Of a stretch of DNA of 64,000 nt, positions 6,763 to 56,260 are shown piece by piece; within the stretch, counting starts at the first letter, position 1, and each line of letters begins with the position of its first letter. Source of the stretch: Eledone cirrhosa (Eukaryota). Under the pieces are notes generated by a model. It made no database searches. It worked only from the letters and a program-made list of their open reading frames with translations, and was not told the origin of the DNA. The stretch is from NCBI GenBank assembly GCA_964016885.1, contig OZ024743.1, positions 172,422,001-172,486,000 on the forward strand, in the 5' to 3' direction. The position numbers were made by a program, and so were the translations under genes.

Positions 6763-7066
6763 ATATCAATGATATTAATAAATGGAAACTATATTTATAA
6801 AACCATATTTATTTTATTACATATATTTCAAGGGTACAAACATTTTGGTACGCTCTCATCAGATAAAATACAAAATGTGTTTTATAAATGGTGACATACC
6901 CAAGAAACCAGACCTTATCGGTTTCTTGGATATGTCACTATTTATAAAACAAATTTTGTATTTTATCTGATGAGTGCTTACCAAAATGTTGGTACCCTTG
7001 AAATATATATAATAAAATAAATATGGTTTTATAAATATAGTTTCCATTTATTAATATCATTGATAT
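6763..7066. repeat. About 300-bp imperfect palindrome with two HHRs, at 6811-6869(-) and 6960-7018(+)
   Basis: The arms are reverse complements (mirror ORFs METIFIKPY...). HHR reads ttttat-CTGATGA-...-GAAA-tatata-TA-ataaaa. Confidence 0.9.
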
Positions 7067-7177
7067 TATACTCCAGAAAAATACTGTAGAGTGCTTTGAA
7101 TCTGTTATAAATAAATTTGTTGAATAACCAACAAATTAAATATCTCTTTGCTTATATATATATATATATATATATAG

Positions 7178-7368
7178 TTATAATTGTTTCTACTTTAGGC
7201 ACAAGGCCAGCAATTACCCAGTGCATTACTGGTACTTTATTTTATCGACCCCGTAAGGATGAAAGGCAAAGTCAACCTCGGCGGGATTTGAACTCAGATC
7301 GTAAAGGGACGTAACTATGCTGGAAAGCATGGCGTCCGACCCTCTAGCGATACTGCCAATCCACCGTC
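7178..7368 (-). mobile_element. tRNA-derived SINE with Deu/Nin-like central domain; copies at 42875-43050(+), 54667-54855(-), 57940-58155(-)
   Basis: B-box-like gagttcaaatccc followed by cctttcatccttacggggtcgataaaataaagtaccagt in several copies. Confidence 0.85.
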
Positions 7369-52720: not shown

Positions 52721-53950
52721 ATGTGTGTTTTTTTGTTTTTTATGTGTGTTTTTTTTGTTTTTCTGTTTTTTTGTTTTTTTGTTTTTTTGTTTTTTTGTGA
52801 ATGTGTCTGTTGATTTTGGCATATTGTTGATTAGTTTAAGAGAAGTTCGAAGATAATAGTAAGATATGCACTCAGTATTTTGAATCTGTCTGCAGAATTC
52901 TCTAGAGCTTTGTCACTTAGTAGAACCTTAATGACTTTAGCTTTTAAAGAATCTCCCTTTTCTTTAATTCTATGGAGCATGACTGACCCCCCACTGATTT
53001 TATAGACACCTGTTAGCTTAAGAGAAACTTATTGACAAGGAATGGTATACCATCCGGAACCTGTTTATAGAATTCTGTCTGCCTTTGTTACTCTAAAAAC
53101 ATAAATAAATATAAATAAAAATAAAAATTAACTATAGCTTTGTAGAATTAGCTTTTAATGAATTCCCTTTTCTATCAACCAATGACCTGCACCCATCCCA
53201 CTCCCCACCCTCTCCTACCACTTGTAGAGACCTATAAATACCATATTTATTTTTTGATACCCAGATTCCTGATGATTTCTAATGAATGAAACAGTTCTAG
53301 TCCTGTAGAATCTCTTCTATATTAAAACTATATATATATATATATATATATATATATGAGTGTATGAATAGTATATTTGGCAATATACCGTGTCTTTAAT
53401 TAAAAACATTCAGTATTAAAGTAGTGACTATATCACTTACTTCTTTTCGGTGAGAGAAGGGAGAGAAGTTGACAGTCTGTTTCACGTTGGTTGGCGTTCA
53501 TCAGAGCCACGTAATCCCCTGCTTCCGTCGAAAATTATAGAATCCTTATAGAATTCCAATAATAATAAGGAGGTGATTATACAGAGCGATTGCCGGTCCA
53601 GCAAAAATTCGTTATTAGGATTGGTGCTCTGAAATAGCGATGTATACATGAATGTATGTACAGTATATTTGGCAATATACCTGTCAGCTTCTCTCCCTTC
53701 TTTCTCCGAAAAGAAGTAAGTGACATAGTCACTACTTTAAAACTGATAACGTATGGTCTTCTAAATGTTTTTAATTAAACATAGGGTATATTGTCAAATA
53801 TACTATACATACATTCATGTATACATCGCTATTTCAGAGCACCAATCCTTATATATATATATATATATATATATATATATATATATATATATATATATAT
53901 ATATATATATATATATATATATATATATATATATATATATATATATATAT

Positions 53951-56260
53951 AAAGTGAAGAATAACATGGTTGACAGTACAAACAAGGATATTTATTTACA
54001 GTCTTACAATTGTTTCCATGATAGAATTGTCTATAAATTGCTAAATACTGGAGACTATATCTCAATTTACAATACATCTAACTTCAACCATTTCATCAGA
54101 AACTATTAAGAAATATAAAATATATGCGTAACGGTGTACTTAAAAATTCAAATTACTACATCAATAATAGTATTAATGATAAATAAATAAAGGAAGGGGC
54201 ACATATGGAAATGAGAGAGAAAGAAAGAAAATGACGAAAGAAGGAACGAAGATATAGTTAAATGTATAATCGGCAAAGTTACGAAATCAAACTATTACAT
54301 CAAAATAAATATAATATTAATAATAATAAAGATACATATAGAAAGAGAGAAGGGGCGGATATAGCATAGGCAAAGAGGAAGGATAAGTAAGGAATATGAG
54401 AAAGAAATAGAGGAAGATTAAGAGGGATGAGGAAGCAGAGGGGGATAGAAATTAATCATGAATAGGGGGATATGAAGAAGAGAGAAAATAAAATAAACAT
54501 ACGGACGAATATACATTACTATGTAAAATAGTTAGTGTCAGATGTATTATATTATAGGATAAAATGATCGAGATAAAATATGTTTAAGTGGAGAAATACA
54601 AAGGCAAATGGTGAATGGTGTATATATATAAGATAATAAATGATGTAAATACAAATGAAAATAAAAATAATTGTTTCTACTTTTGGCACAAGGCCAGCAA
54701 TTATCCAGTACATTACTGGTACTTTATTTTATCGACCCCGTAAGGATGAAAGGCAAAGTTAACCTCGGCAGGATTTGAACTCAGATCAGAAAGGGGCGTA
54801 ACTCTGTGCTACAAAGCATGTTGTCCGACCCTCTACCGATACTGCTAAACCACCATGAAAATAAAAATAATGATGTTAATACAAATGTGTTTAGGTTATT
54901 CTTACGTAATTATGAAGTTTGTGATAATTTTATATCGTAATAGGTGCTAAAAGTATAAAAAGGAATAAGGAGTAGAAAATGGAGTTAAGTTGGTCTAAAG
55001 TTCAAGAACTTCGTTGCTGATTTATGCCGGCAAAAGATAGTTCGCTCAATTCTGCTGTTAAGAAGGGTTTTACTAAAATTAAGAATTTTGGAAGAGCTCC
55101 ATGTTACAGAGCCTACAATGGGACACACCATTATGATAGGCCTTAGCAGGTGACTGTATTTTCCAGCTGATCTCGTATTTAATGCCTGCATTCTTGAGTT
55201 GCCATATTTTATTGGCAAGAGTTGTTGTATTTGATTGATTCTTATTAATCATAGAATGTCTGTGCACTCCATTTTCTACTCCTTATTCCTTTTTATAATT
55301 TTAGCACCTATTACGATATAAAATTATCACAAACTTCATAATTACGTAAGAATAACCTAAACACATTTGTATTAACATCATTATTTTTATTTTCATTTGT
55401 ATTTACATCATTTATTATCTTATATATATACACCTTTCACCATTTGTCTTTGTATTTCTCCACTTAAAAATATTTTAACTCGATCATTTTATCCTATAAT
55501 ATAATACATCTCAAACTAGCTATTTTACATAGTAATGTATATTCGTCCGTATGTTTATTTATTTTCTCTCTTCTTCATATCCCCCTATTCATGATTAATT
55601 TCTATCCCCCTCTGCTTCCTCATCCCTCTTAATCTTCCTCTATTTCTTTCTCATATTCCTTACTTATCCTTCCTCTTTGCCTATGCTATATCCGCCCCTT
55701 CTCTCTTTCTATATGTATCTTTATTATTATTAATATTATATTTATTTTGATGTAATAGTTTGATTTCGTAACTTTGCCCGGTTATACATTTAACTATATC
55801 TTCGTTCCTTCTTTCGTCATTTTCTTTCTCTCTCATTTCCATCTGTCCCCCTTCCTTTATTTATTTATCATTAATACTATTATTGATGTAGTAATTTGAA
55901 TGTTTAAGTTTACCGTTACGCATATATTTTAAATTTCTTAATAGTTTCTGATGAAATGATTGAAGTTAGATGTACTGTAAATCGAGTTATACTGTCTCCA
56001 GTATTTAGCAATTTATAGACAATTCTATCATGGAAACAATTGTAAGACTGTAAATATCCTTGTTTGTACTGTCAACCATGTTATTCTTCACTTTTTTATT
56101 ACTCCAAGATATATTTACATAGGAATACAAGCGAAGTCATAAAATCGTCACCAACGTAAACCTCTTGTTGAGTCACACAGCACCGTACGCTTAAAATGTC
56201 CATGATAAGTAGTTTTCACAGACTCTTATCGGATTACCTTTAACGATTTATTGTTATCCT
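53951..56260. mobile_element. Fold-back PLE 3' fragment with a SINE in the left arm only
   Basis: 53951-54982 mirrors 55268-56094. Endonuclease tail at 54985-55267(-). HHR agttt-CTGATGA...GAAA-caattg-TA-agact at 55943-56049(+), mirrored at 54000-54104(-). Confidence 0.92.

Follow-up and report, generated by a model that had tools for sequence, protein, structure and literature searches.

We describe here two conserved, bulged hairpins in Penelope-like retrotransposons of Eledone cirrhosa, starting from 64,000 nucleotides (nt) of contig OZ024743.1 (GenBank assembly GCA_964016885.1, positions 172,422,001 to 172,486,000 of the forward strand; this whole stretch is called the window, and its positions are counted from its first letter). 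The units of these elements are ordered as hammerhead motif, hairpin 1, tail, hairpin 2 and open reading frame (ORF), and their fold-back copies end just before one or the other hairpin. Judging from sequence, each hairpin likely positions the reverse transcriptase (RT) of the element to start a few bases upstream, a reading to which we assign a probability of roughly 0.7. Somewhat better than even, in our estimate, are the chances that the pair constitutes dedicated, clade-wide RNA docking sites for two RT molecules starting ~4-6 nt upstream on opposite target strands, i.e., a programmed twin priming by which both ends of an insertion are determined, the hairpin of ~20 nt being a portable start signal for an enzyme related to telomerase.

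A bulged hairpin at the arm ends

The initial annotation of the window had reported that the mirrored arms of fold-back insertions from five different families stop just before the heptamer WTACTCC and are followed by an unmirrored tail. The heptamer is present at all five sites (7068, 30724 and 56099 on the + strand, 25613 and 40919 on the - strand), after which we name the families. The partner arm begins at a run of (TA)n, and its in-register copy ends at 7062, 30721, 56093, 25630 and 40930, respectively, which is 2-10 nt before the heptamer. The tails that follow measure 90, 168, 166, 140 and 98 nt in the same order, the last one running into (TC)n and then (TA)n. A hammerhead-like motif lies upstream at every site, with its predicted cut 56, 63, 54, 57 and 60 nt before WTACTCC; hammerhead calls are matches to a minimal type I pattern, and motif and cut site are both predictions. 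Speaking of five different families overstates their diversity, as an alignment of 30724 with 56099 reaches 69% over 135 nt, and one of 56099 with 25613 reaches 76% over 42 nt. The insertions (A, family 7068; B, 25613; C, 30724; D, 40919; E, 56099) and three further arm ends are composed as follows.

6767..7152, + strand: fold-back insertion A, with the inverted short arm beginning at 6767, the direct arm reaching 7062 and the tail at 7063-7152
6967..7011, + strand: hammerhead core of A up to the predicted cut (pattern match)
7070..7092, + strand: hairpin 1 of A, ACTC CAG / CTG TA GAGT (RNAfold)
25489..29226, - strand: fold-back insertion B, with the tail at 25489-25629, its long arm on the - strand and a short arm that stops at (TA)n 29227
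25579..25617, - strand: hairpin 1 of B, ACTC CAAG / CTTG TG GAGT (RNAfold)
25677..25769, - strand: hammerhead of B, U3-A8 core variant (pattern match)
26745..27530, - strand: RT fragment (YRDD) in B, by eye of the same type as the ORF of the 30724 family
28050..28490, + strand: GIY-YIG-type endonuclease fragment in B; decayed CxC linker, CxxC and CxH by eye
29269..30889, + strand: fold-back insertion C, with the short arm beginning at 29269, the direct arm reaching 30721 and the tail at 30722-30889
30561..30660, + strand: hammerhead of C, CCGAAGA core variant (pattern match)
30726..30794, + strand: hairpin 1 of C, ACTC CAAG / CTTG TT GAAT, with GAGT in other copies
40832..41170, - strand: fold-back insertion D, with the tail at 40832-40929 and a short arm that stops at (TA)n 41171
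40885..40923, - strand: hairpin 1 of D, ACTC CGGAG / CTTCG TC GAGT (RNAfold)
40986..41030, - strand: hammerhead of D (pattern match)
53952..56259, + strand: fold-back insertion E, with the short arm beginning at 53952, the direct arm reaching 56093 and the tail at 56094-56259
55948..56044, + strand: hammerhead of E (pattern match)
56101..56173, + strand: hairpin 1 of E, ACTC CAAGA / TCTTG TT GAGT (RNAfold)
17804..17827, + strand: hairpin 1 after the arm end of the fold-back at 17375-17795, GTTC TGCAT / ATGCA TT GAAC, no WTACTCC
7422..7467, - strand: hairpin after the arm end of the fold-back at 7483-7915, no WTACTCC
62133..62153, - strand: hairpin-like element after the arm end of the fold-back at 62159-62871, GCTC...GAGT, no WTACTCC

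At all five sites the heptamer belongs to the 5' strand of a bulged hairpin of the form RYTC-stem-loop-stem-TN-GARY: ACTC is followed by 3-5 paired bases, and the returning strand carries a 2-nt bulge starting with T and then GAGT (GAAT at 30724). RNAfold yields the bulged helix for 7068, 25613, 40919 and 56099; for the window copy of 30724, the lower stem is absent from the fold. WTACTCC is the spacer plus the 5' strand of hairpin 1 in those families whose upper stem starts with C.

The generality of both motifs was assessed at arm ends found ab initio, from a start at (TA)n and an inverted partner, in 80 evenly spaced stretches of 10 kb from the genome. The hairpin descriptor was then fixed, and 58 further stretches were obtained afterwards as a held-out sample. 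Removing symmetric, microsatellite or duplicate junctions (35 of 96 raw junctions in the first sample, 62 of 112 in the held-out one) left 61 and 50 for analysis. WTACTCC occurs within 12 nt of the arm end in five of the 61 and five of the 50 (shuffle means 0.31 and 0.14). In these larger samples the heptamer thus lies near arm ends more often than by chance, but at only a minority of them. Since it is missing from ~90% of tailed fold-back ends, and since the fold-backs at 17795, 7483 and 62159 have a hairpin without it, we rejected WTACTCC as a general signal; within the window itself, nine of its 14 matches lie outside the five arm ends. The hairpin follows the arm end in 23 of 61 junctions of the first sample and 13 of 50 held-out ones, for shuffle means of 0.88 and 0.74 (maximum 3 in the latter) and a frequency of 2.4-2.7% at random positions.

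Pairing in the upper stem was evaluated on the 19 of 61 clusters that qualified after anchoring by sequence only. Positions 2-4 pair in 17, 14 and 14 of these, against 11.5, 6.2 and 7.9 when partners are shuffled. The lower stem occurs as ACTC/GAGT, GCTC/GAGC or GTTC/GAAC, and the loop spans from 3 to more than 50 nt. From the last base shared with the TA run to the hairpin, the gap is 4-6 nt in 30 of 54 junctions and in 12 of 19 cluster medians.

The hairpin does not apply to all Penelope fold-backs, as clusters F1, F5, F6, F9, F19 and F20 have none at the arm end (the read-through copy L035 of F1 holds one hairpin-like match, unexplained). By eye, several hairpin-lacking fold-backs (L039, L084, L168, L059, L162) carry endonuclease remnants of other Penelope clades. 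These, together with L072:7370-7543, also have fixed ends and tails of 37-70 nt that open with different hairpins or motifs, so each Penelope clade may have its own start signal. The commonest tailed cluster, F0 (L050, L051, L053, L062, L072, L080, L154), has arms of just 40-60 nt, and its fold-back centre falls inside the hammerhead, of which only the 3' half remains.

Two ends and two hairpins per unit

When copies of the 30724 family were retrieved with only the arm as query, nine of 25 had short ends, 13 stopped at the tail end and three read on; the same short and tail-end groups are seen in the 56099 and 25613 families. Copies end ~4-6 nt before hairpin 1 (short) or hairpin 2 (long), at a short UA-rich match to the target, and almost every junction has a TA-like match. 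If a hairpin sets the short end, a second one is expected past the long end, where copies that read through should reveal it. This was forecast beforehand, and read-through copies from each of the five families then revealed hairpin 2, with the ORF starting 35-100 nt further downstream. In tandem units of the 30724 family, the tail end is followed by four bases, GCTC CC / GG TC GAGC and the ORF. Hairpin 2 of the 56099 family is found in the read-through copy L010, that of the 25613 family in six of eight copies (L282, L289, L293, L312, L313, L315; L284 and L314 have stem changes), and that of the 7068 family, with one upper pair, in two copies (L309, L310). Of ten read-through candidates of the 40919 and 7068 families, four have the hairpin or its 5' strand and six enter microsatellites or unrelated DNA. 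More distant families, at 38-60% protein identity, also carry hairpin 2 (L036, L167, L114, L153).

Two other occurrences of the motif had been pointed out in the window. The taactcc at 49098 is real, yet it is hairpin 2 of a non-coding partial tandem and not an arm end:

48788..49489, + strand: non-coding partial tandem with both hairpins; hammerhead 48839-48908
48984-49007, + strand: hairpin 1 of the partial tandem, GTTC/GAAC
49100-49120, + strand: hairpin 2 of the partial tandem, at the taactcc

The second repeat of this tandem stops at (TA)n, 4 nt short of the expected start of hairpin 1. No hairpin accompanies the motif directly after (TA)n at 57848, whose unique part had no match among the sequences examined, so it is probably there by chance.

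On sequence criteria, the hairpin-bearing fold-backs are 5'-truncated insertions of Hydra-clade Penelope-like retrotransposons. This clade is marked by RWK, DKT, a CxCx5C linker, no CCHH, a hammerhead and (TA)n targets (PMC8557442, on which, as on the other papers cited by PMC number, we draw in excerpt). The 30724 family encodes a single open frame of 808 amino acids with an RT plus a C-terminal GIY-YIG endonuclease (L244-L246), displaying RWK, DKT, YRDD, the CxCx5C linker, and CxxC and CxH near the end (by eye). It lacks CCHH, which led us to reject a Neptune, Nematis or Penelope/Poseidon identity. There are 86 full-length relatives of this protein at 29-46% identity, and RWK is also present in copies of the 56099 and 25613 families, although insertion B of the window retains coding fragments only. 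For the 7068 and 40919 families the assignment to Hydra is weaker, because the comparison covers only 18-20 N-terminal residues (40-56% identity). The hammerhead pattern is found in all five elements, and insertion into (TA)n holds for the families examined, the 40919 family often showing (TC)n at its long end. A non-LTR (long terminal repeat) retrozyme identity was rejected as well: the five are head-to-head stubs of coding families, and only 48788-49489 is a non-coding partial tandem.

Relatives in other hosts were sought in metagenomes. A single protein query gave no matches, and an alignment of 48 proteins retrieved 79 loci at 30-40% identity. The N-terminus was present in 55 of them, and 47 were kept for later hairpin counts; the other eight were dropped for a split or inverted match with upstream DNA that is not the element's, or with less than 20 nt of it. 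Among the 21 loci (19 distinct) with both hammerhead and ORF start, at ~35% protein identity, the interval between the two holds two hairpins in 17, three calls in three and one in one, while two motifs occurred in none of 200 shuffle rounds. The closing pair is kept in 59 of 60 distinct hairpins (44 C-G, 14 T-A, 1 G-T; shuffle 46.8), and ACT comes next in 62 of 67 motif calls of a first-pass regular expression, which often picked a false second start; the later hairpin count corrects for that. A descriptor demanding paired stems under-counts hairpin 2 (19 of 50). Away from contig edges, 11 of 20 downstream 3' repeat ends lie -1 to 8 nt from a hairpin (random mean 1.9). Among published consensuses, Hydra-1_Ajap contains two hairpins, the first of them 2 nt from its start, and Hydra-2_Ajap and Hydra-2_Amil have one hairpin, in the 3' end (all by eye). 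A third ACTC...GAGT-like element lies 15-19 nt past the hammerhead in a single group of metagenome families (L344, L392, L357) and in the published Hydra-1_Amil.

Other observations concern the families and the window at large. The 30724 family is young (window 29269-30889; L244-L246, L252-L281), its best copies being 99% identical and arranged in tandem units of ~3.5 kb, and many copies keep the intact frame of 808 amino acids, so that the family would suit biochemical work well. In the 40919 family, the long end very often joins (TC)n and the short end (TA)n (e.g., window 40767-40832), suggesting that insertion takes place at boundaries between (TA)n and (GA)n. Hammerhead core variants are fixed within families: U3-A8 at 25677-25769 (-) and C at position 4 at 30561-30660 (+). 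The U3-A8 variant has been described (PMC4209133). A Pfam search of the window left the RT and endonuclease fragments of B unmatched; an Rfam search, its output dominated by microsatellite matches, returned none of the five hammerheads and no family for the hairpin. The window also contains four copies of a ~185-nt repeat resembling short interspersed elements (7180-7365, 42868-43050, 54667-54854 within element E, and 58001-58151) and decayed non-LTR retrotransposons with AP-endonuclease and RT frames at 14679-17204 (-) and 22119-24510, the latter region including a 68% inverted repeat. Finally, an inverted pair 6 kb apart (34306-34727 and 40283-40701) has a hammerhead pattern and an arm end without clear hairpin.

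Start signal and competing explanations

The heptamer had been taken for a cis signal, common to the families, that determines the start of the short arm. That such a signal exists is supported, as nine of 25 copies of the 30724 family stop at one same base. It is not a linear heptamer, however, but a structured element that occurs twice per unit and also marks the tail end, and it is limited, as far as tested, to the Hydra clade. Among the roles put forward for it (nick site, priming site or transcript end), a priming-site signal fits best. Both ends of a fold-back are oriented like target-primed complementary DNA (cDNA); therefore the two nicked strands of a (TA)n target would prime at two sites. 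In such a scheme, the endonuclease would nick both strands of (TA)n. The 3' end of one strand would anneal to UA-rich bases 5' of hairpin 1 and that of the other to those 5' of hairpin 2, both priming on one read-through RNA, and the two cDNAs would be linked in head-to-head orientation where each is truncated. The tail would then be the interval between the two start sites, and hairpin 2 would never be copied into a terminal end.

The hairpins might instead be RNA processing or termination signals located ~4 nt downstream of the ends, with an end-primed RT using RNAs of two lengths. A hairpin is indeed missing from the end it marks, as expected of a downstream cleavage signal, and the element already carries a self-cleaving motif. 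Independent RNAs should yield many long-long and short-short pairs, though, and of 61 head-to-head pairs, 54 combine a short and a long end, with the tail on either arm, while just two are long-long and three short-short (two are unclassified). In addition, in an element assayed in vitro the start remained internal after a change of the RNA 3' end (PMC11167929). We thus regard this explanation as unlikely.

Rather improbable, in our view, is a reading of the element as DNA, in which the GIY-YIG endonuclease would recognise the hairpin in the cDNA or in an existing copy and trim or nick beside it as the intermediate is resolved. Endonuclease recognition needed the tail in the Penelope of D. virilis (as cited in PMC11167929), PMC8557442 ascribes the tail to endonuclease-mediated resolution, and our wobble counts do not prove the RNA strand. 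Yet short UA-rich matches connect both ends to (TA)n, oriented as would be expected for primed cDNA on either strand; finished terminal ends lack hairpin 2; and loops of 3 to more than 50 nt suit a folded single strand more than a duplex site. Very improbable as a full account is that the hairpins are sites in the 5' untranslated region for translation control or packaging by the element protein: the position of hairpin 2 ahead of the ORF start and the near-universal TA-like match, if UA-rich stretches simply anneal to (TA)n, would agree with it, but other nearby UA-rich stretches are seldom used and, across families that cannot be aligned, the gap still concentrates at 4-6 nt. Such a role would also be compatible with a start signal rather than exclusive of it.

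Several observations weigh against the hairpins as RT start signals. Both the protein binding and the RT start sites at Hydra-clade hairpins are ones that we infer. Upper-stem position 1 pairs in 14 of the 19 genome clusters, not above the shuffle value of 12.4; the lower stem of the metagenome hairpins is invariant (GCTC/GAGC in 59 of 60), so that this part adds no covariation; and counts of G.U versus A.C (4:5 in the genome, 9:5 in the metagenome) do not indicate the RNA strand as the folding one. The gap to the hairpin ranges from -2 to 14 nt. In the held-out sample, 37 of 50 junctions miss the strict descriptor, many of them being, by eye, of other clades, decayed or in nested TA runs, and two of the 13 matches are off-register (L127, and L154 at 9735). 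Hairpin 2 often has only one or two upper pairs, and that of the 40919 family is known from one copy (L306). Nine of the 20 metagenome repeat ends are not near a hairpin, and the published Hydra-1_Obim and Hydra-1_Crog show no canonical hairpin pair (by eye). As to the 61 pairs, they were partly found via the tail, so that short-short pairs are under-sampled, and they count one locus twice and include a few misclassified ends.

Relation to known systems

The fold-back with an optional tail is already published for Penelope-like elements (PMC8557442). For PAc, an element of the Poseidon clade from the green anole, both target strands are cut and extended in vitro, RT starts internally, and the tail is the stretch between two RT start sites (PMC11167929). 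A literature search, with most subscription papers and Repbase notes outside its reach, found no description of the hairpin pair, and 'hairpin' and 'stem-loop' have no matches in the supplement of PMC8557442, insofar as it was available in excerpt.

Like the published Hydra clade, our elements combine an inverted truncated copy, a one-sided tail, a hammerhead and (TA)n targets; unlike it, they have tails of 60-170 nt versus 30-40 nt and units of ~3.5 kb versus <3 kb (PMC8557442). As for PAc, genomic ends fit two start sites, the hammerhead lies upstream and the target is AT-rich (PMC11167929). In contrast to PAc, the ends are located upstream of the ORF and 5' of two distinct copies of one conserved bulged hairpin, and share a short match with the target. 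Twin priming of LINE-1 likewise has two target strands priming on a single RNA, which yields an inverted segment, but the second priming site is opportunistic and the arms have no sequence overlap; in our elements the two sites are fixed and the region copied is the same for the two cDNAs. The template-boundary helix of telomerase and the bulged stem epsilon of hepadnaviruses anchor an enzyme at a set distance from its template, to which the hairpins bear a likeness by analogy only.

The origin of the inverted repeats and the one-sided tail of Penelope-like elements is an open question in the excerpts of PMC8557442 and PMC11167929. If the hairpins tell the copying enzyme where to start, the one-sided tail would be explained. 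A conserved hairpin at each end offers a small, exact RNA element to manipulate, in families with intact ORFs, and gives curators a boundary rule for Hydra elements. Since telomerase has its closest relatives among the enzymes of these elements, an RNA anchor fixing the start on an internal template would bear on the evolution of template positioning.

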